A stretch of DNA of 49,638 nt from a virus. Its lineage: Duplodnaviria > Caudoviricetes. The notes beneath the pieces are model-generated. The model saw only the letters and a list, made by a program, of their open reading frames with translations, made no database searches and was not told where the DNA came from. A program made the position numbers and the translations under genes. The number at the start of each line of letters is the position of its first letter. Positions within the stretch are counted from its first letter, which is position 1. The stretch is from the IMG/VR virus record IMGVR_UViG_3300005405_000328, positions 1 to 49,638 of that record. The stretch is one strand, 5' to 3'. Of this stretch, positions 11,206-29,224 are shown piece by piece.

Positions 11206-12687
11206 TTACCAATCAATCCTCTCTACCCAAATGCCAGGGCCAATCATTGCCCAATCTCCACCGCTATCACATACAACTAATCCACAAATAGCATCAGCAT
11301 CCCCACATCGATAAGGTAGCGATCGCGGTGTGTTTGTAACCGTGTCAGATATCCCAGCCTTATCAATTCGTCTGTCTATCTTAGATATAATCGTCGTATC
11401 CCCGGCCCTATTTTGTTGGGCCGAAACCAGTGCCTGAAGGTAATCGGCTATACCTTTTAATCGTCCGCCGTATTCTATCTTGTACTGCCATATATCTGTA
11501 GTTACGTTTGATACGGTTACTTTCCGAACCAGGAAGGTTCCAACCACGTTTCTCTCGGGCAAATTGATATTAACCAATTGTCCGGGTTCCCATCCTGGAA
11601 TCTCCGTACTAAAATTTCCGGATACTGTTGGATTAGAATAATCTCTCAGCTCCGCTTGGCCAGCTGCCTCCGCCGCCTCTATTGTCGTTAAAGCATCGTC
11701 GGTTATAACATCTTCAAATATACCGTCACAGTCCAATACTGCCGCCGCTATAGCCTCCTGGCTTTCGAGATCCTCAACCATGGTGATAACGTCAATATCC
11801 TGTTTGGCTGTAAGAGTAATGGTGGTACCGACTGTAGGGGTGGAAGTGTCATTAGCGCACTTAATGTACTTCTCCTGAAAGTTCAGAAAGTAGTCATAAG
11901 TTCCATCGTCCTCATCCACGTTCTCTATGCCAATGCCACCATCAGGATTAACTAAAACTCCACCCACCTGAAAACTGCACTCATGAGGCCCCCATGGGAG
12001 GTTCCATACCCGGGCCACACCGTCTGCTTTCCACTCCAGAGGTTGTGGATCACTTAGCATAGTACCACCTATGACGTAAATCCTGTTTTTTAAGCTCTGT
12101 GTATCAATGGTATGACTGCCAAACTTAAATCTCCCCCCGGGTACCAACTCCATAGGAGCTGGGCTGATTAATTCATTCAGGGAGAAGAACTGAAGATCCT
12201 TGAACGAATCAGGCTGCCAGTGCCAACCAACATATTTACATAGCAATTTAAAACACTCGCTGGGCTTAACGTAATTAAATTTAATTTTAATAATATTCGG
12301 AGCTCCGGATCTTACGCCATTTATTGTAAACCCAGGGCATTTTTTTGCGGCAATGTCCAAGAATATGTCGCTGGCACTCATGTTCTCGTAATCCTCAATA
12401 ACTCTTTTGCGGTCCATCAAGGCGGTATAATCATCACAATTAATTTGGCGGACATTTATGGAGCCATCCGGGAAGGAGCGTGCCAATTTATCCTTTGTTA
12501 TAATTCCTGCAAAAAGGCGTTTATCATCTTGCTCAATAATTATTTCATCGCCCCACGCCGGCTGTACTCCTTTTAGCTGGAATGAACAAGTATCTATTTC
12601 ATAGGTGAACGCCTTTTCGATTTTAAGACTCTTTTGTTCCAAATCCGGAAGACGCTCAACTCCGGCAATTTTAATGCTTCTCATCAA
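11206..12687 (-). CDS. tail hub/baseplate protein following the tape measure
   Basis: 493 aa, overlaps TMP stop; hub-like motifs (LKNRIYVIGG, GWEPGQLVNI). Confidence 0.7.
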   Translation of the reverse strand: MMRSIKIAGVERLPDLEQKSLKIEKAFTYEIDTCSFQLKGVQPAWGDEIIIEQDDKRLFAGIITKDKLARSFPDGSINVRQINCDDYTALMDRKRVIEDYENMSASDIFLDIAAKKCPGFTINGVRSGAPNIIKIKFNYVKPSECFKLLCKYVGWHWQPDSFKDLQFFSLNELISPAPMELVPGGRFKFGSHTIDTQSLKNRIYVIGGTMLSDPQPLEWKADGVARVWNLPWGPHECSFQVGGVLVNPDGGIGIENVDEDDGTYDYFLNFQEKYIKCANDTSTPTVGTTITLTAKQDIDVITMVEDLESQEAIAAAVLDCDGIFEDVITDDALTTIEAAEAAGQAELRDYSNPTVSGNFSTEIPGWEPGQLVNINLPERNVVGTFLVRKVTVSNVTTDIWQYKIEYGGRLKGIADYLQALVSAQQNRAGDTTIISKIDRRIDKAGISDTVTNTPRSLPYRCGDADAICGLVVCDSGGDWAMIGPGIWVERIDW

Positions 12688-15600
12688 ATCAGCCCCAATT
12701 TATGTAGCTTGCTTGTCATTTCTTCTTCCCAATCCTCGGTCAGCTGGAATATAAATGTATTGCCACCATTGTTGTAGGTGGTAGAATTGGATGATCCGGC
12801 GGCCCCCGAGGATTTAACAGATATGCTTGATATGCCAGCCATAGTGTTTATAACTGACTCCAAGCTTGGCAAGCTATTCTGAATTCCCTCTATAAAAGTC
12901 CCCACCAAAGAAGGGCCCCATTCCATGATCTTGCTTAATGGTCCTTTATCTGCCGGTGAGTGCGGCATATAAGCATCTACCGTGCCGCCTAATTCCTCCA
13001 TGGTTTTTCGCAGGGCTTCAAACTGGCTTTCAATTCCGCTTATAAAATTAGTCATCAGACTTACACCGTAACCCGTAGCACTTTTATCAAGGGCCTCAAA
13101 CGATACCTGAATTTTGTTAAGCTGCTCAGTAGTGTTCTTCAGGATCTCGGCATTTTTTGTTTTCCACTCCTGTTTTAATTCTTCCAGTTTTTGAGCCGCC
13201 GCGATATTTAGTTCCGTTAAACTCGCCTGATAATCTGCATATAGCGCGTCCGACTGTTCATTAGCAATAGACCTGGCAGCGCTTTGTTTCTCTTGCCAGA
13301 GGGCAACATACTGGCTCAATTGAACATCAGTCAAGGTGTTCAGCGCTGCAATCTCATCGGCGGCGTCCGGACCCATCTCTTCAAGTTCGGATATTAAATC
13401 ATCACTGACGCCCCGGCCAGCTATTAAAGACAGGTTTGCTCTCCAGGAACCTATTGTATCTACCTGGTCTTGCAGGTTCTGTAAGAGGGTTTCCCCCGAT
13501 ACTTCTTTATTATTAACCGCATCGAATAGTCCCACAAAATTAGCAATTGCGTCTGCTCGGGATGTTAATTCGTCTTTATAAGACGCAGTCAGGCTAGCTT
13601 CATCCTCAGCCAATCGGTTATTAACTTCATCCACTGCAACTTGATATTCCTGGGCTGCTTTAGCCATGTCTGCATAGTAATCAGCCACAACCTCTTTGGC
13701 ATCGCCAAGCAGATCTTGGTAACCTTTCAATGCTGTCTGCTGTTTCTTTAAAGATTCCAGCTGTTCCTGAGTTGCCTCCATTTGAGCCTTGGCATCATAA
13801 GCCGCAAGTTTGGCCCGGGCTTCTACAGCCGCCTTTTTAGCCGCAGTCAGCTTATCTTCGGCGGCGCCCTCTTGTTCTAATGCTTCAATTTTGCTATCAG
13901 CAGCTGCTATGGCTTGTTCAAGGGAGGCCCGTTCGATTTCTGCTTGATCTGCAGCCTGTTGTTTCTGGATCCCTGTTAGGTTGGCAGCCTCTTCTTTTAA
14001 TTTGGCTTCCATAGCTGCTATCTGTTGATCCATGGAGGCTAGGACTTGACTGGTACCGTCCGTGATACCCTGAGCCAGACCTGCAGAAACATTCTCACCT
14101 ATTTCAGTAAAAACTGTTGAGGGAGAATGGATACCCAATAATCCCTTAACTGTATCTGTAATTTTACTGGCAACGGTCGCCATAGTCTCTCCTATGGCAT
14201 CAATACGAGACGATATGCCATTAATAAGTCCATTAATTATGGCTTTCCCTAAACTTAGACATGTTGTAACTAGTCCTTCAAAGGCATTAATTACAATAGT
14301 TTTTATGCCTGACCATAAATCAATAAATATATCCTTAAAGTGCTCCCAGGCTCCTGCCCAATCGCCAGCCATTATATCTAAAACTACACCTAACACATCA
14401 GCAATTACTTGAATAGCAGTTTGAAATATGGCTTTAATTATGTTCCATATATTGGCCAGAACAGATGTTATGTTATCTCCCCACTCACCCCAAAACGCTG
14501 TTATGCTTTCAGCTATAATTGTTATAATGGCTTTTATGTCTTCCCAGATGTCTTCAACTTTATTTCTAAAATCTTCGTTGTTTTTCCATAGATCAACAAC
14601 CGCTGCAACCAAGCCAGCTAAAATTGCTATAACTGCAGCAACAGGGGCTACTACACCTGCTACTGTAGCCATAAACCCACCAGTTGCGCCTTCTGCTGCT
14701 ACCGCTGCCGCCACCAATCCTGATGCTCCCAGCGCCTCCGATATGGTACCAATAGCACTGACTACCATTCCCGCGACAATCAACAGCGGACCAATTACTG
14801 CAGCTATCCCAGCCACAATAATTATTGTTTGTTGTAAAGCAGGATTTAGATCTGCAAAACCATTTATAAACTCCGTAATATTTTCAATTAGAGCTCTAAG
14901 TGGTCCGGAATTCAACTCATAAAGTTTTACCGCAGCAGTTTCGGCCGAACCCTTCATTTGCTCGATTGATCCGCTAAGATTGTTCATTTTCTCGCGGGCT
15001 ACTTCTTTAGCAGTAACGTCAGACATCGCAGTCTTCATAGAAGTTACACCCTGCTCACCCTCTTTATAGAGGATGTTAGCCGCCCGGATCGCATCAGACC
15101 CAAACATTGTCTCTAGTGCCATCATACGTTCAGCGTCTGTTAACCCGCTCAGGTTGGTTTGTAGCATCCCTGCAATATCATCCAGAGATTTTAAGCTGCC
15201 AGTAGAATCGTAAAAAGCACTAGTACCGTCTTTGTTGATTAGATTAAACTTTTTAAATGCTGCCGAGGCCTTATCTGTAGTAGGTTGCAGGTTTAGGAGC
15301 ATTGTCTTTAAGCTTGTACCCGCGTCAGAACCCTTTAGCCCATTTTGAGCAAAAACAGCAAGAGCTGTAGCAGTATCTAGGAATCTCATTCCGGCCCCTG
15401 CAGCTACTGAAGAAGCTTGAGAAAGTCCTAAGTTCAATCCGGCTACGTCGGTAGCTGAAGCATTAGCTGCCCCGGCCATAATATTAGCTGCATCAGTAAC
15501 CGTTAGAGCATCATCTTTAAATGAATTTAGAGCTGTTGACGCAATAATTGCAGCATCAGCCAACTCTATATCACCCGCCGCCGCTAAAGCTAATGCCCCT

Positions 15601-16286
15601 GATAATCCTCCATTTAATATCTGCTCTGTACTGACCCCGGCCTTTTTTAATTCTTCAATACCCCGGGCAGCCTCAACTGCACTATATTTTGTATCGGCCC
15701 CCATTTCTATGGCCATATCGTGCAGTTGCTCTAGGCTCTCGGTTGTTTCACCGCCCAGGGCTTTAATATCAGACATACCTTGCTCGAAGTCAGATCCTGC
15801 TTTAATAACAGCGGCTCCAGCTGCGGCTACCGGCACTGTTACACCCATAGTCAGAGTTTTACCAGTGCTAGTCATGCTCTCCCCAGCCGTTTGGAGCTTG
15901 TTTCCCATATCTTGCAGCGCTTTGCTAGTGTCATTTGCCTGTGTTTTTAGTTTTTTCAACTCTTGCTCTGTTTTCGCAATCTCGCGCTGGTATGCCCTAT
16001 ACTGCCCTTCGTTGATCTCACCTTTTGCAAATTGCTGGTTTAGTTGTTCCTGGACAGCTTTTAGACTCTCTAGTTTGTTTGTAGTATTTGATACGCCCTC
16101 GGCAAGCAGTTGCTGCTTTTGAGCCAAAAGTGCAGTATTTGAAGGGTCAAATTTCAACAGTTTCTCAACTTTATAAAGCTCTGACTGTATATCCCTTGCA
16201 GACTTATTTACATCCTTAAGTGCCGCCTGTAACCCTACGGTTTCTGAACCAATTACTACATTTATGCCTCTTATAGTCTCCGACAA
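12684..16286 (-). CDS. tail tape measure protein
   Basis: TP901-type core (DFEQGMS..KA; KGSDAGTSLK), Trp/Phe repeats, coiled coil; likely start TTG 16286 behind AGGTGA. Confidence 0.93.
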   Translation of the reverse strand: MSETIRGINVVIGSETVGLQAALKDVNKSARDIQSELYKVEKLLKFDPSNTALLAQKQQLLAEGVSNTTNKLESLKAVQEQLNQQFAKGEINEGQYRAYQREIAKTEQELKKLKTQANDTSKALQDMGNKLQTAGESMTSTGKTLTMGVTVPVAAAGAAVIKAGSDFEQGMSDIKALGGETTESLEQLHDMAIEMGADTKYSAVEAARGIEELKKAGVSTEQILNGGLSGALALAAAGDIELADAAIIASTALNSFKDDALTVTDAANIMAGAANASATDVAGLNLGLSQASSVAAGAGMRFLDTATALAVFAQNGLKGSDAGTSLKTMLLNLQPTTDKASAAFKKFNLINKDGTSAFYDSTGSLKSLDDIAGMLQTNLSGLTDAERMMALETMFGSDAIRAANILYKEGEQGVTSMKTAMSDVTAKEVAREKMNNLSGSIEQMKGSAETAAVKLYELNSGPLRALIENITEFINGFADLNPALQQTIIIVAGIAAVIGPLLIVAGMVVSAIGTISEALGASGLVAAAVAAEGATGGFMATVAGVVAPVAAVIAILAGLVAAVVDLWKNNEDFRNKVEDIWEDIKAIITIIAESITAFWGEWGDNITSVLANIWNIIKAIFQTAIQVIADVLGVVLDIMAGDWAGAWEHFKDIFIDLWSGIKTIVINAFEGLVTTCLSLGKAIINGLINGISSRIDAIGETMATVASKITDTVKGLLGIHSPSTVFTEIGENVSAGLAQGITDGTSQVLASMDQQIAAMEAKLKEEAANLTGIQKQQAADQAEIERASLEQAIAAADSKIEALEQEGAAEDKLTAAKKAAVEARAKLAAYDAKAQMEATQEQLESLKKQQTALKGYQDLLGDAKEVVADYYADMAKAAQEYQVAVDEVNNRLAEDEASLTASYKDELTSRADAIANFVGLFDAVNNKEVSGETLLQNLQDQVDTIGSWRANLSLIAGRGVSDDLISELEEMGPDAADEIAALNTLTDVQLSQYVALWQEKQSAARSIANEQSDALYADYQASLTELNIAAAQKLEELKQEWKTKNAEILKNTTEQLNKIQVSFEALDKSATGYGVSLMTNFISGIESQFEALRKTMEELGGTVDAYMPHSPADKGPLSKIMEWGPSLVGTFIEGIQNSLPSLESVINTMAGISSISVKSSGAAGSSNSTTYNNGGNTFIFQLTEDWEEEMTSKLHKLGLI

Positions 16287-16293
16287 TGCTCTC

Positions 16294-16349
16294 ACCTGCC
16301 TTTATATCTGCAGGCAGGCATTGGCTCGCTACTTATTGTGCGGCTCGCT
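16294..16349 (-). promoter_or_regulatory. two AGCGAGCC repeats plus hairpin covering the tape-measure SD
   Basis: Repeats at 16342-16349 and 16323-16330; GCCTGCCT(16319-16312)/AGGCAGGT(16301-16294) stem. Confidence 0.6.
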
Positions 16350-16466
16350 CTGTCCTTCTATTTTCACTGTTACTATTTGCTTGCACCGCTGACATTTGAT
16401 TGTAAGATCAGCGGCATTAGCATAAAACATGGTTTTTCCACAATGGGGACATTTTACTTTTTCCAT
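16329..16466 (-). CDS. Com-family (phage Mu Com-like) zinc-ribbon protein, 45 aa, not in ORF track
   Basis: MEKVKCPHCGKTMFYANAADLTIKCQRCKQIVTVKIEGQSEPHNK: CxxC...IKCxRCK signature. Confidence 0.75.
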   Translation of the reverse strand: MEKVKCPHCGKTMFYANAADLTIKCQRCKQIVTVKIEGQSEPHNK

Positions 16467-16470
16467 CTGA

Positions 16471-16758
16471 TCAACTCATTTCAACTTCGTGCCTTACCTG
16501 AGCCATAGCAATTCCGATCTTTTTTCTTAGCTCCCTTATTTTGCGTTCTGATTTCTTTGTTTTAGGACCGCTTAATAATTTTGTTTGCCTTTCTTGCATT
16601 GCCCTTATCTCGGTATTTGTGTAATGAGATATATATTCCTGAGAGCAATGCGGACATTTAAATGCTACTTTTTGAATATCTCCCTGTATGAATGTTTCAT
16701 TGATCTCTGTTAGTACGAATTCCTTATTACACCCTTCGGTGCATACTAGCTTTACCAG
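16471..16758 (-). CDS. 95-aa zinc-ribbon + coiled-coil protein with probable CTG start, not in ORF track
   Basis: Open frame LVKLVCTEGCNKEF...FKCPHCSQEYISHYTNTEIRAMQ...; in-frame TAG 3 codons upstream; GGGGGT SD 8 nt before CTG. Confidence 0.65.
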   Translation of the reverse strand: MVKLVCTEGCNKEFVLTEINETFIQGDIQKVAFKCPHCSQEYISHYTNTEIRAMQERQTKLLSGPKTKKSERKIRELRKKIGIAMAQVRHEVEMS

Positions 16759-16771
16759 GTATGCCTACCCC

Positions 16772-17002
16772 CTATCCGAGCAGCTTATCAATATCCTTTT
16801 GCGTTGCCTTCCGTACCTTCCCACTGTCTACAAAGAAGTAAATATCTAGAAAACTTATGAAATCTGCTACGCTGAATTCATTTATCTCTGCAAGACTCAT
16901 CTTTGCTCTTTTGCCGGATGCTATCAATTCAAGATCAAACTCTTCCGGATTGATTGTTCGCTTACTTTTGCTGGACTTGTTTTTTGGCCGCTCCTTTACG
17001 AA
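16772..17002 (-). CDS. frameshift extension (T part) of the tail assembly chaperone
   Basis: +1 frame from the TTT TTT CGT site: FVKERPKN...EFDLELIASGKRAKMSLAEINEF...VRKATQKDIDKLLG*. Confidence 0.75.
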   Translation of the reverse strand, partial: FVKERPKNKSSKSKRTINPEEFDLELIASGKRAKMSLAEINEFSVADFISFLDIYFFVDSGKVRKATQKDIDKLLG

Positions 17003-17312
17003 AAAAGCCGTTGGTAGCCTCCTCCATCACGGCACCCATAAGCTGTTCATCCGAGAAGTCGAATCCATCAAATGTCGAAAGCCAGGTTTCAAACCCTGGG
17101 AATTGATTACCTGGTCCTGAATCTGCCTTGGCCATGGCCCAGGTCATCTGGAGTATCATTACAGTATCTAGTTTGCTGTGATCCTGTTTTATGGAGTTCA
17201 TTTTTGTTAGATCACCCAGCAGATCAGCCCTAAATTCCTGCCGGTAATACAGAAGGGCCAGGGGCGTAGCCCTGACCCTAACCGGTTTTTCGCAGATTTT
17301 TATTTCTTTCAT
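16962..17312 (-). CDS. tail assembly chaperone (G part)
   Basis: Between major tail and TMP; RATPLALLYYRQEF motif; slippery GFFR near the end. Confidence 0.8.
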   Translation of the reverse strand: MKEIKICEKPVRVRATPLALLYYRQEFRADLLGDLTKMNSIKQDHSKLDTVMILQMTWAMAKADSGPGNQFPGFETWLSTFDGFDFSDEQLMGAVMEEATNGFFRKGAAKKQVQQK

Positions 17313-17321
17313 ATATGCTCC

Positions 17322-18221
17322 TTAACTAAAGGTAGGCAACTGCACTGCAGTGAACCATGCATTGTAAACAGCTTCATTGGCAGTAGCTAACTCAAGAACT
17401 CTTTTAACGATCTTCTTTCCGCCAATCTCAATTGGCAGCATTGTAATGGCTGCAGTTTCAGTCGCAGGATCATCGCTGCCCTCAGTAGTTTTATGATCTT
17501 TTTTGGGTCTGGCTAACTTGCAGTCATAGTAGACAAACCTGCGGTTTTTAACATCACCCTGCACTTGTCCCATTAAAGCAAACTCTTTTTGTGCACCATC
17601 CGCAATTTCTACTACTCCTCCGTCAGTATCCATTTCCCATCCAAATGCCTCTACTAAAATAGCATCCGGAATTAATGCGGTTTCTAAATCTCCTGAATAT
17701 CCGTTGTTGCTGGTTGAAGTGTAGTAAATACTATTGTCTGCATAAAATTTTGACTCTTCCCCCTCTGGATCCGCAGATAGTCCCACCACCCCGAGGACAG
17801 GAATAGGTATTCCATAACCAGTAGCACCTGCAGTAACATTCGTCGATGCTCCGACTGTCACCCCAGTGGTGCCAGGGGTACACGCTAATGCTAATGTGGC
17901 ATCATCCGCAGCCACCACTTTTGCTGTCAAAGTCAGAACACCTGCCGCACTTCTGGCAATAAAGTCCTCAGAGACAGCCGCATTGTTATTTAGTACATTG
18001 GCGACGGCGGCGGCAACTTGGGTAACTGTACTGTGTGATTCAGTGGAAAAAGGAACTTTAATAGCCAGCGGGGACCCCGTGACAGCTGCGCTGGTGACCG
18101 TTATGGTCACTTCCCCGTCCAGAGTGCAGCCGGTCAAAAACGCTATGCTTTCAACCTGAGCCACACCTTTAAAGGCTATATGTAGTTTTTCGAGTCCATA
18201 TAAAACCTTGTTATTAGACAT
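17322..18221 (-). CDS. major tail protein (phi13-type) with ~110-aa insertion
   Basis: NKVLYGL, FYADN..Y, NNGYSGDLE, FALMGQVQGD..NRRFVYY motifs. Confidence 0.88.
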   Translation of the reverse strand: MSNNKVLYGLEKLHIAFKGVAQVESIAFLTGCTLDGEVTITVTSAAVTGSPLAIKVPFSTESHSTVTQVAAAVANVLNNNAAVSEDFIARSAAGVLTLTAKVVAADDATLALACTPGTTGVTVGASTNVTAGATGYGIPIPVLGVVGLSADPEGEESKFYADNSIYYTSTSNNGYSGDLETALIPDAILVEAFGWEMDTDGGVVEIADGAQKEFALMGQVQGDVKNRRFVYYDCKLARPKKDHKTTEGSDDPATETAAITMLPIEIGGKKIVKRVLELATANEAVYNAWFTAVQLPTFS

Positions 18222-19290: not shown

Positions 19291-20226
19291 TTAAACGTCC
19301 AGGTAGACATCCACCTGGTGTCCGTCCAGAGCACTGGCCAGATCAATCGTATTTGATTCGATTGCTGTAGCACTCACTGTTACAGTCGGAGCGGCCTCTA
19401 ACACATTATTTAAAAATACCTTATCCACCGTATTTCTCTCCAAGAGATAAGGCAGCCCCAGTTTATCATTCCAACCAATAGACACAATGTCTTGTGCCAC
19501 TCCAGCGGTTCCATTAGTGGAAGCCCCTGCGGTAACCCCAGTAGTGTCTGTATCTACAAAGCCCATGGCTAAAGTCCCATCGTCAGCTAAGTAAGCATCA
19601 GAGGTAAGAGTTACGGTAGCCGAAGTTCCAGCCGCATTGGAAGCGGTAAAGTGCGGAGCAACATCAGCGTCGGCATTGATAGCTGCTACGATCAGAGTTG
19701 CTACCTCTATAGCCGTATCATCCTGTTCTACTTCCACGGCTATTGCCTTTGGAGCGTCCAAGACGGCTGCTGTTACGGTTACCGTAATAGTTCCAGCAGC
19801 ATCCGCCTTATGGGATATTAGCTGAGTTTCTGTCTGGAATGCAGGAACATGGGTGCGGGCTGGTAGAGTAACCTTATCAACAGTTTTGAAGGCCTTAGCC
19901 CCCTCCACAACAGCAACCCCATTAGTTGCGATTGTCTCTGTTATCTCTTCATCTGCATAATTTGTTCCGGTTAGTACCACATTTCCAGCAATACCAGCTA
20001 CGTTTCCTTTTATTCTTGCGGCTCGTGGTACAGCAGGGTCAGTAAGGTTGACGGCCAAGGTAGATCCACCCGCAGCTAGGATAATCCCAGCGTGTACTCC
20101 GGTATTGTTTGCTGCCACGGCATCTGCAGCCAGGACTTGAAAATGGGCTCTAAATGCCCTGTCAACCACTACACCCTCCACATCGGTCTGAAGTTTTTGT
20201 CCCATTTTATGATTATATGAATGCAT
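19291..20226 (-). CDS. putative virion decoration protein with inserted domain
   Basis: Ala/Thr/Val-rich; between connector and closure genes; internal segment similar to the major-tail insertion. Confidence 0.55.
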   Translation of the reverse strand: MHSYNHKMGQKLQTDVEGVVVDRAFRAHFQVLAADAVAANNTGVHAGIILAAGGSTLAVNLTDPAVPRAARIKGNVAGIAGNVVLTGTNYADEEITETIATNGVAVVEGAKAFKTVDKVTLPARTHVPAFQTETQLISHKADAAGTITVTVTAAVLDAPKAIAVEVEQDDTAIEVATLIVAAINADADVAPHFTASNAAGTSATVTLTSDAYLADDGTLAMGFVDTDTTGVTAGASTNGTAGVAQDIVSIGWNDKLGLPYLLERNTVDKVFLNNVLEAAPTVTVSATAIESNTIDLASALDGHQVDVYLDV

Positions 20227-20239
20227 CGTTTACCTCCTT

Positions 20240-20803
20240 TTAAGCTGTTGTAAAGCTTATTACTGTATATTTCATAGTCTGGCCGGCGTATGCGGCCGCA
20301 CGGTCTATAACGATCGCGTATTTTGTGGCTGCATCTAAAGGGTTGCTTGTTTCTATAGTCAGCAATTTGCCCGTAATATCCAAGGTAGCAACAATAGTAA
20401 CAGGTACCTGGGTACTATAGCTTACCAGGGCTATTGAGTAGCTCTTAATCCTGCTGTTAAAAGTCAGTACAGGTTTCACATTTACTGAAACGGCAGTTGC
20501 TCCTTCTGCTGGGCTGCTTGTTACTTTAAGCACTGAGCTTCCGATGGCCAATTGACTGAGTAAAGAATAAAAGACGGGAGAGAACTTAATCTCCCCGTCT
20601 TCTACATTCCAAAGATCAGCTACGCCCATGACGATTATGCCGACTGCCAGGTCATCAAGCATCGACGTTTCAGATACCCCAGCGCCTAACATGAAAGACT
20701 TAACAGCCAATAGCTTTTGAGTCAGGACATCATTAAAATCAGTGCCTTCCACCTGAGGGCCCAGTCCCTTTTTGCACTCAATTAAGAGTTCGGCATCCGT
20801 CAT
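20240..20803 (-). CDS. head-tail connector (gp6-like) fused to an Ig-like (Big_5-like) domain
   Basis: About 90-aa helical connector, then SSPAEGATAVSV...LTFN...L...TKY.IVI...FTT. Confidence 0.7.
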   Translation of the reverse strand: MTDAELLIECKKGLGPQVEGTDFNDVLTQKLLAVKSFMLGAGVSETSMLDDLAVGIIVMGVADLWNVEDGEIKFSPVFYSLLSQLAIGSSVLKVTSSPAEGATAVSVNVKPVLTFNSRIKSYSIALVSYSTQVPVTIVATLDITGKLLTIETSNPLDAATKYAIVIDRAAAYAGQTMKYTVISFTTA

Positions 20804-26804: not shown

Positions 26805-27488
26805 CTATGCAGTATACTCTTCGAACCACTTATGAATATAACCGGCCCACTCATCCTGCCGGTACCGCCTATCCTCATCAAGCTCCAGCCGTCTCAGGCA
26901 TTCATCCTGGCTTACATAACAGAAGATTAATTCCGCTCCCAGATCCGCAGCTAACTTCTCTCTCTTGTAACGATCCGCATAGCCGCCAATTATCCAGGCG
27001 TTATTCCACTTTCCATACCTGGTCTTTATATTATCAAGTAGTTGGTTGTGAATACCTCGCACATTAACCAGTAGATTATCCGGCTTATCGTAATAGGGTA
27101 ACATCGACACTGCCGTGTACAGCTGGTCAATATCTACTACTAGATCACCTCTACTTATTTGCTGCCGAATAAATGTTTTCTTTCCGGCTAAAGGCGGCCC
27201 ATAGACAATACATACATCCTTTGTAGGCTTATGACCAAACCGGTGATGGATCTGATTGTGACAGTCAAAACATACCAATATAACATTTTTAGGGTTAAGA
27301 CTAATGTTATAATCACATACATTTTCCGGGGTCAATTCAATTGTATGGTGACCTATTATTTCTATTGATTTAGCTATTGTCCTTCCGCATTTTTCGCACT
27401 TATTGCCACGTTCGTTTATTAATAGCAATCTGAAGTTAATCCACTCATCGGAAGCATAAAAGCTTTTTAATATAGCGTATTTAGCCAT
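26805..27488 (-). CDS. HNH endonuclease fused to a P-loop domain
   Basis: CxxC...HH...N...CxxCHN..H then VYGPPLAGKKT. Confidence 0.85.
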   Translation of the reverse strand: MAKYAILKSFYASDEWINFRLLLINERGNKCEKCGRTIAKSIEIIGHHTIELTPENVCDYNISLNPKNVILVCFDCHNQIHHRFGHKPTKDVCIVYGPPLAGKKTFIRQQISRGDLVVDIDQLYTAVSMLPYYDKPDNLLVNVRGIHNQLLDNIKTRYGKWNNAWIIGGYADRYKREKLAADLGAELIFCYVSQDECLRRLELDEDRRYRQDEWAGYIHKWFEEYTA

Positions 27489-27521
27489 AGTCTTTATTCC
27501 TTTTCCCAAGCGCTTGGAAAT

Positions 27522-28220
27522 TTAAAAGTTCTTAAGCTCATCCATTTTCTTCTGATGATCGAAACGTTCTCGTTCAATCTGTATATGCTCTTTAATCTTT
27601 TTAATCCTTTGTTTCTGCTCCTCTGTAACCATATCCCAGTTAGCATGCAGCATTTCATCATAGCGCTTTATCATATTTGTTAGCTGCCCCATAGCTACGG
27701 CTTGAGCCTTTAATGACCTCTCCTGTTTATCCCAAGCAAACTGTATTTCGTATTCTTTTTCCCAGCCATCACCTTGAGAGCTTTCAAACTCCTTTTCTCT
27801 TTTTAGTTCTTTTGTCATATCCTCTTTATCTTCCACAAACATGATCTTTTGACTGTGAATGATAGCTGCAAACTTCATACGAATATTTAAATACAGGATA
27901 TCTATAGGCGCCATTCCTTCGGTATCCTTTAAGATATCCACCGTTGCTTTAGGCAAATACTTAGAAAACAACCCATGAATATAATGGTTCATATTGTGAG
28001 TAGGAGCTCCACCGCCACTATTTCCAACTGCGTTTTGGTTTCCGTAAGGAGCGCCTACTTTACCGACTCTGTCTTTCCACCTGTCTTTCACTCTCCAGGT
28101 CTTAATATTATTAAGCTTCTCTCCTAATTGATCAGCTATTTCAGTGGAGCTTAACCGCCCACCGCTTTCTTTATATAAATTAAAAGCCTCATCCCTATTA
28201 GGACTTCTTTGTCTGCCCAC
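27522..28220 (-). CDS. terminase small subunit-like HTH protein (YqaS/XtmA-like)
   Basis: RQRSPNRDEAF, HTH, W...D.W, GAPYGNQNAVGN..GGAP..N.N...HG, EYEIQFAWDKQ. Confidence 0.8.
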   Translation of the reverse strand: MGRQRSPNRDEAFNLYKESGGRLSSTEIADQLGEKLNNIKTWRVKDRWKDRVGKVGAPYGNQNAVGNSGGGAPTHNMNHYIHGLFSKYLPKATVDILKDTEGMAPIDILYLNIRMKFAAIIHSQKIMFVEDKEDMTKELKREKEFESSQGDGWEKEYEIQFAWDKQERSLKAQAVAMGQLTNMIKRYDEMLHANWDMVTEEQKQRIKKIKEHIQIERERFDHQKKMDELKNF

Positions 28221-28597: not shown

Positions 28598-29224
28598 TTA
28601 AGTTGTCCTGATCAAATTATTAAGTGAATCGCTATATTTATCGTAAGTCTCCCTGTCCAAACCGAGATATCTTTTTGTTTCAGCCTCGCTCCTATGCCCC
28701 AGCATTTCCTGAACCAAAGTAACATTATAATCACTTTCAATAAATATTTTATAAGCATAGGTTTTACGCATTGAATGGGCTGAAATGCGTGTAAGTCCAA
28801 ACTCTCGGCCAGCATCTTTTAGGATCCGGCTCACATGACTGACTCCGATATGTTTGTTTTTGCCCTTCCTGGATTGAAATAAATATTCATAATCTTTCTT
28901 ATTCCTTATGTATTGCGCTAAGAGCACATCCAGGTTGGCTATTACCTTCACTATTCTTGGCTTGATATTTTCTTTCCTAATATTTTTACTATTAACTTTT
29001 TTACCTTCCATAATCTCAAAATACCCTTTATTTAGGGCAGCTCTTATATCCCTTACCTTCTGGCCAACCAGGTCACCGGCTCTGTACCCTGTTGAAATCC
29101 CGAGAACAAATAACATAAAATCTCTTTCATTCTTACTTTTTAAGAAGTCCTGAATATCCAAGACCTTTTCCCTATCTTTTATGGGTTTTGCCGGTTCTTT
29201 CTTAGCCATATTTTTAATTCCCAT
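28598..29224 (-). CDS. small tyrosine recombinase (catalytic domain only)
   Basis: TGYRAGD, SAHSMRKT, LGH, RYLG: R-HxxR-H-Y residues intact. Confidence 0.9.
   Translation of the reverse strand: MGIKNMAKKEPAKPIKDREKVLDIQDFLKSKNERDFMLFVLGISTGYRAGDLVGQKVRDIRAALNKGYFEIMEGKKVNSKNIRKENIKPRIVKVIANLDVLLAQYIRNKKDYEYLFQSRKGKNKHIGVSHVSRILKDAGREFGLTRISAHSMRKTYAYKIFIESDYNVTLVQEMLGHRSEAETKRYLGLDRETYDKYSDSLNNLIRTT

Follow-up and report, generated by a model that had tools for sequence, protein, structure and literature searches.

A conserved com–RNA cassette ahead of phage tape-measure genes, likely a Mu-type translational switch on a core tail gene

Directly ahead of the tape-measure protein (TMP) gene of a tailed phage lies a small gene whose 45-aa product is, as judged from its sequence, a member of the phage Mu Com family, and the RNA at the junction of the two genes is predicted to fold into two hairpins, P1 and P2, of which the second covers most of the Shine-Dalgarno (SD) sequence of the tape-measure gene. 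Comparison with related loci indicates that this is a real, conserved com–RNA cassette on the tape-measure gene. By analogy with Mu, Com probably binds P1, opens P2 and switches tape-measure translation on. This is likely the known Mu-type translational switch, acting here on a core tail gene instead of a DNA-modifying enzyme.

The com gene and its genomic setting

The window, i.e. the whole analysed stretch of 49,638 nucleotides, comes from a virus record with the layout of a temperate tailed phage (integrase, replication, terminase, portal, head, major tail, tape measure, endolysin). Its late genes lie on the minus strand, on which the major tail gene (18221..17322) is followed by these features:

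16772..17312, minus: pair of likely tail assembly chaperone genes, ORF 17312..16962 overlapped by frame 17026..16772, from ORFs and position
16471..16758, minus: 95-aa ORF with zinc ribbon and basic tail (phrog_1315, E 1.1e-19)
16329..16466, minus: com-family gene encoding a 45-aa CCCC zinc ribbon (Pfam PF10122, phrog_6417)
12684..16286, minus: tape-measure protein gene, TTG start, 1200 aa (Pfam PF10145, E 1.2e-44)

The com ORF (16466..16329) starts with ATG and has the pattern CxxC-x15-CxxC. The initial annotation had described a CxxC/CxxC ORF of 45 aa ending 42 nt before the tape-measure start and had likened its product to Com. The coordinates were confirmed (stop TAG 16331-16329, TTG 16286), and the likeness was borne out by a profile search, in which Pfam PF10122 was top among the 43 families listed (27.7 bits at a cut-off of 22.9, E 1.8e-6). 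The protein also matches phrog_6417 'translational regulator' (E 5.6e-10) and phrog_13819 'gpCom', and 12 of 35 aligned positions are identical to Mu Com from record AF083977 (34% over 35 aa, pairwise E 6e-8). A com search of 1.84 billion representatives gave 64 matches at E ≤ 0.001, and the cysteines C6, C9, C25 and C28 are invariant across 31 aligned proteins (30 short matches and the query). The AF2 model contains four beta strands (mean pLDDT 84.5) and ends in about ten low-confidence residues, with a mean pLDDT of 56 in the last block. A Foldseek comparison of this model with the PDB gave no match at E ≤ 0.001, the top rows being small zinc ribbons at E 0.5-1; a word-index protein search with the 45-mer returned no candidate, and NCBIfam had no match above a cut-off for either com or the 95-aa ORF.

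Translation from TTG 16286 begins with MSETIRGINV, in agreement with the N-termini of relatives, and a Kyte-Doolittle scan places hydrophobic segments of the protein around residues 480-570 and 616-641. The gap between com and the tape-measure gene showed no site resembling a promoter or a terminator. The 95-aa ORF, which the initial annotation had missed, lacks an ATG, likely starts at a CTG behind a GGGGGT SD, and stops 4 nt before com. It is present 5' of com in 10 of 34 loci with com and in none of 77 loci without com, and it could be a partner of com or a passenger. Used as a query in a locus search of viral contigs, it gave no confirmed locus, and the ESM Atlas held no usable match to it.

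The ORF pair at 17312..16772 lies between the major tail gene (phrog_88) and the tape-measure gene in a region that matches phrog_709 (unknown function); by this position it likely encodes the tail assembly chaperones, which are context here and stand outside the switch. Frame 17026..16772 is +1 (equivalently -2) relative to ORF 17312..16962, and the overlap at 16998-17009 (minus) reads GGC TTT TTT CGT; a similar string is found upstream in 14 of 80 TMP loci. The usual arrangement in tail chaperone frameshifting is -1. In one related locus (L228:500-1200), a small membrane-protein gene in opposite orientation lies between chaperones and tape-measure gene, and in the predicted fold the reverse complement of its SD pairs with the tape-measure SD. 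Elsewhere on the minus strand of the window, the major tail protein (17322-18221) has about 120 aa ahead of its PHROG match, and two ORFs of 311 and 187 aa between head and connector genes (19291-20226 and 20240-20803) have no PHROG match at E ≤ 0.001. The region 26805-28220 / 28598-29224 holds two ORFs with terminase-small-subunit PHROG matches, one of them also HNH-like, and a second, short integrase-family gene adjoining a ParB-methyltransferase.

The RNA element

The junction of com and the tape-measure gene carries the following elements:

16347..16352, minus: CAGAGC word 5' of P1, within com; columns at least 90% conserved in 33 loci
16324..16344, minus: P1 hairpin, GCCGCAC-loop-GUAGCGAGC, in the MFE fold and by RNAalifold; holds the com stop
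16294..16319, minus: P2 hairpin, GCCUGCCU/AGGCAGGU, -13.3 kcal/mol alone; predicted to inhibit translation
16292..16301, minus: tape-measure Shine-Dalgarno sequence AGGCAGGTGA, 8 of 10 nt inside P2; anti-SD duplex -13.8 kcal/mol

Two copies of AGCGAGCC (16349-16342 and 16330-16323, period 19), the sole copies in the window, straddle the com stop, as the initial annotation had reported. However, such a repeat is at chance level window-wide: 27 of 100 shuffles contain at least two AGCGAGCC copies and 50 of 100 contain GAGCC-N10-20-GAGCC, and the window has 41 exact 8-mer repeats of period 9-30. The exact pair, moreover, occurs in only 14 of 34 related loci, and the tandem 8-mer as the functional unit was therefore rejected. 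Conservation points to another unit, which is the bulged hairpin P1 together with the unpaired CAGAGC word. Folding gives two adjacent hairpins, P1, formed by both repeat copies (16344-16324) with bulged As at 16330 and 16326, and P2 over the SD; the pairing of the two copies had gone unnoticed in the initial annotation. The CAGAGC word is unpaired and outside the structure in the RNAalifold consensus. P1 is a candidate Com site. The stem that had been described 3 nt past the second copy, covering part of AGGTGA, is P2, in which GCCTGCCT (16319-16312) pairs with AGGCAGGT (16301-16294) and buries the AGGT of AGGTGA (16297-16292). This part of the annotation stands.

The fold of the 121-nt region has a z-score of -2.27, with 3 of 200 shuffles as good, and Rfam gave no match at gathering score in the window and none at E ≤ 10 in 16200-16800. 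The window alone is insufficient, and the significance of the element lies in its conservation in relatives.

Two further pairings were considered and dropped. A hairpin in which the 3' GAGC of P1 joins the GCC at the P2 foot yields only -2.2 kcal/mol alone and costs 6.3, with the SD opening cost remaining at 8.9, and a C-G to U-A change in one lineage is too little to retain it; the other, a longer one that spans the window's TTG start, lacks conservation in the alignment.

Related loci

Relatives were collected by four routes. Searching viral contigs for the repeat pattern gave 32 matches, of which 19 are unrelated and 13 have the element ahead of a long ORF resembling TMP; com is intact in 12 of these and broken near its start in one. 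The second route used only the zinc-ribbon core, excluding the tail that overlaps the RNA, and scanned the next gene for 47 proteins; it leans to this subfamily, because its seed com alignment came from the repeat-pattern loci. Among the resulting 165 loci in 58 clusters, a tape-measure gene is next in 20 clusters, not counting the window's own copy (L140) and L148, which ends after the element. A methyltransferase, Mom or ParB-methyltransferase-like gene is next in 14 (13 from the scan and L135 from its resemblance to L130), and the remaining next genes include primase, portal, protease, scaffold, major tail and unknowns. The element is carried by 17 of the 20 tape-measure clusters; the other three (L077, L111, L169) gave no match and have an SD opening cost of 9.3-9.8 kcal/mol. 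Com homologs ahead of major tail, scaffold, portal, head protease and primase genes are seen at L072:2090-2175, L070, L116, L179, L190, L194 and L052, several of them with SD-covering or terminator-like hairpins.

The third route used only the TMP N-terminus. Among the best 80 of at least 595 confirmed loci, 3 have com, all 3 with P1 and P2, and none of the 77 without com has either hairpin; a first TMP search had given 9 loci, none with com. The initial annotation's gate before the tape-measure gene holds as a conserved order of com, RNA and tape-measure gene, but not as a general feature of tail assembly (3 of the best 80 TMP relatives).

The fourth route used only the DNA pattern of P1, with at least 120 matches. 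Among the 120 listed, 20 also have P2, and a com ORF is present in 20 of these 20; the others comprise 2 with com and a variant P2, 5 with com and a terminator-like hairpin, 3 spurious cysteine matches and 90 with neither. All 9 downstream proteins that were scanned match TMP PHROGs, of several families. Named relatives are mostly from Bacillota (Paenibacillus, Anaerostipes). They include the cultured Anaerostipes phages AC844P1-3, in which the com homolog is unannotated (OP172636); in AC844P2 (L404:2501-2691; OP172636.1 29701-29511), com likely starts at ATT, and a variant element precedes a tape-measure gene that is annotated as hypothetical.

P1 alone does not imply a translational output, since it also precedes terminator-like hairpins in five loci (L289, L297, L338, L344, L387; four of the five were folded). 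These hairpins, which have long stems with U-tracts and no nearby SD behind com and P1, as well as a U-rich tail in 2 of 34 com–TMP loci, are what one would expect if P2 were a terminator or processing hairpin and Com an antiterminator acting on transcription or RNA stability. We consider this very improbable for the tape-measure loci: the tail is absent in 32 of 34, P2 of the window has no U-tract and no terminator-like site was found there, and in the 34 loci the 3' arm of P2 carries the SD a few bases before the start codon. The hairpins of the five loci also start with GCCUG.

Conservation and covariation of the two hairpins

In a 23-row RNAalifold set (the window, 20 loci found by com homology and 2 by repeat pattern; L077, L111 and L169 left out), both hairpins are predicted, with pairing in 184 of 184 P2 cells. 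A larger set of 33 rows consists of 34 non-redundant loci minus L404; since the 34 were chosen with a P2-like string, P2 conservation there is partly by construction. In this set, 98.4% of cells are paired, compared with 22-39% in slid controls, and six pairs show double changes, with 22 such cells vs 6.0 in shuffles, a level reached in 0 of 500 shuffles, which ignore kinship. P1 is paired in 96.5% of cells, its strongest pair being G-C in 20 and A-U in 12 rows; these counts are from a MAFFT alignment, since P1 could not be anchored automatically in 4 of 34 rows. Homologous loci, in which repeats and stem had been proposed as the features to look for, have thus kept the stem with covariation, the exact repeat being found only in the 14 loci mentioned above.

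A covariance model built on the 33-row set finds one site in the window (86 bits; the next scores 13.6 bits), so no second Com target was found there with this model. It recovers held-out com loci, including L404, gives one match per genome in 5 of 5 whole records, including a held-out phage, and does not match any of 32 com-less TMP loci at E < 0.01. In 8 of 34 loci, P1 is preceded by a short copy of the Mu type, and in 5 of 34 a further GAGCC word reaches into the first bases of P2 and ends there, which suggests that Com words form an array extending as far as the P2 foot.

The position of the com stop raises translational coupling, in which ribosomes that terminate there would unfold P2 and start again on the tape-measure gene, with Com itself being incidental. 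In the window, 9 nt separate the stop from P2, and in 19 of 34 loci the distance is at most 12 nt. Holding the RNA open to stop+12 or stop+15 reduces the SD opening cost from 9.3 to 6.2 or 3.9 kcal/mol. However, RNA open to stop+9 has no effect (9.6), and the distance between stop and P2 spans 7 to 27 nt. Even where they are non-coding, P1 with its bulged As and the CAGAGC word stay conserved, and P1 persists where the com stop falls upstream of it (L351, L378, L152). Moreover, a zinc-ribbon ORF is present in all 20 listed matches with P1 and P2, which would be needless under coupling alone. We therefore regard coupling as an unlikely explanation, albeit the least unlikely of those set against opening of P2 by Com.

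Accessibility of the Shine-Dalgarno sequence

The predicted cost of opening positions -16 to -5 has a median of 10.8 kcal/mol in loci with com (n=26, minimum 7.0) vs 4.4 in loci without com (n=64, maximum 12.0; Mann-Whitney p 5e-12, uncorrected for kinship). It is higher with com in 11 of 11 hand-picked contrasts of tree neighbours, and the most closed SDs without com stem from unrelated pairings. In the 34-locus set the median is 12.0, and one locus has the minimum, only 4.1. For the window, 9.3 kcal/mol are predicted, and 7.8 for Mu mom. Forcing P1 to form leaves the SD opening cost at 9.2 vs 9.3 kcal/mol, which argues against a simple alternative fold.

The initial annotation had also stressed a weak TTG start. 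TTG 16286 is the start codon, but its weakness appears incidental: ATG is used in 15 of 34 loci, and non-ATG starts are also found in 25 of 64 loci without com (Fisher p 0.064), so that a weak start was rejected as a needed part. Weak starts are seen in com itself, with ATT/ATC/ATA in 10 and GTG in 6 of 32 loci (SD-based pick).

Evolution of the cassette

On a tree of 86 TMP N-termini (15 with com, 71 without; 120 columns, many open forks), the com label needs 11 changes, 4 of them forced by well-supported branches. The cassette is optional and patchy, and it is gained or lost as a block. Several loci have unrelated genes upstream of com, and com still adjoins the tape-measure gene. One close TMP relative of com-bearing phages (L242:1110-1210) has the same SD and may be a natural 'lock removed' or pre-insertion state.

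Such a pattern, with at least 11 gains or losses (4 forced) and with L242 having the same SD but neither com, P1 nor the 5' arm of P2, is compatible with a selfish insertion, i.e. the same lock and key without benefit to the phage, kept because loss of com alone would silence an essential gene. This possibility concerns purpose and is compatible with opening of P2 by Com. That it is the whole explanation seems to us as improbable as antitermination: no mobility gene or target duplication was seen in a non-systematic look, and the cassette recurs before several TMP families, which suggests selection for this target.

Discussion

Mu Com is described as binding CC(N)2-3GAG in a hairpin beside an inhibitory structure, and its C-terminal tail may be needed for melting, according to the account in PMC6483171. 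The cassette resembles Com/mom in that a small CCCC zinc ribbon is encoded directly before its target on one strand, and in that a GC-C...G-A-GC hairpin adjoins a stem hiding the initiation signals, with a similar predicted opening cost. It differs in its target, which is the tape-measure gene (PF10145) and not Mom or a DNA methyltransferase; in the hairpin, which has an extended stem with a second bulged A where Mu has a CC-N3-GAG loop; in the position of the element, which straddles the com stop, whereas in Mu it lies inside com and the target start overlaps; and in the shorter C-terminal tail (45 vs 62 aa). Neither SELEX word, GAG(N)2CC or the loop motif CC(N)2-3GAG, occurs literally in the window element. 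It has an extended CC-N14-GAG with the same closing pairs and bulged A, a form that was defined after the window was seen.

In a module search for a paired base, two C-G pairs and a bulged A across 57 clusters (L140 left out), the Mu-type module was found in 14 of 14 methyltransferase clusters (4.4 expected), and its extended form in 14 of 20 tape-measure clusters (4.0 expected); 4 of 23 others also gave a match (2.4 expected). Com-like genes preceding prophage DNA methyltransferases are described for FluMu and Pnme1 in PMC3299994. There, too, com keeps its place and the downstream target is swapped, and the 14 clusters of this kind that we recovered all have the short Mu-type module; in contrast to the cassette described here, those systems target DNA modification enzymes, with a loop of 2-3 nt in most RNA modules. 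In Pseudomonas, com-like genes stand before lectin-like bacteriocins, tailocin cargo, lysis enzymes and levansucrase, their role being called unexplored in PMC6240691. The likeness lies in an often unannotated PF10122 gene before non-mom genes, several of which have harmful products; the differences are that these hosts are Proteobacteria and that neither an RNA element nor a tape-measure target was found described there.

Our model is that P2 keeps the ribosome-binding site of the tape-measure gene closed by default, as predicted from the fold, and that Com, by inference from Mu, would bind the GC-C...G-A-GC bulged-A module and neighbouring GAGC words. Binding to P1 would open P2 and turn tape-measure translation on. 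P1 and P2 can coexist, which means that Com would need to enter P2 at its foot, as has been suggested for the TIS of Mu. The coexistence of the two hairpins in the predicted fold, for which no Com-stabilised open alternative was found, is what a repressor would allow as well: Com on P1 might stabilise the closed state or block ribosomes and cap tape-measure output in the late phase. Only a few copies of the tape-measure protein are needed per tail, which would suit such a limiter. However, P2 is predicted to close the SD already without a protein, the loci without com are also without P2, as expected of a lock that needs a key, and the target of Mu Com is activated according to PMC6483171. A repressing Com thus appears improbable, somewhat more so than coupling, and we favour activation, given a default state that is already closed and a P2 that was not seen in any locus lacking com.

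With regard to timing, com shares its late transcript with the tape-measure gene and follows the tail chaperones on it, and tape-measure synthesis might thus wait for a build-up of Com. Such waiting could delay or damp production of a hydrophobic, possibly toxic tape-measure protein. These two steps are the weakest of the model, and any timing benefit would be non-essential because 77 of the 80 close TMP relatives manage without the cassette. A broader and more speculative reading, which we hold to be possible but doubtful, is that Com and P1 form a portable sensor, which phages and mobile elements can plug into an SD-burying hairpin or a terminator, and that before the tape-measure gene it acts as a post-transcriptional checkpoint of tail assembly, in which tape-measure protein would be made only once Com, often translated from a weak ATT or GTG start, passes a threshold. 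If this were true, the diffusible Com of one prophage could license tail production of another.

To our knowledge, described translational control of tail assembly is mainly chaperone frameshifting. In the literature searched, mainly open-access main text, we found no protein-operated gate on a tape-measure gene and, in line with the initial annotation, no description of Com before tape-measure genes; supplements of RNA-motif catalogues may list the element. If the switch works as proposed, it would be a concrete mechanism that keeps the tape-measure protein low and late. Some tape measures with membrane segments are described as toxic when overexpressed in PMC11797047. The covarying alignment points to bases for mutation, and AC844P1-3 are cultured phages carrying the module. 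Such a pair, an activator of 45 aa and a target of 80 nt, would in addition make a compact tool for use in Gram-positive hosts. For the family as a whole, a working switch would widen Com from a curiosity of Mu to a small regulator of virion genes that annotation has missed.
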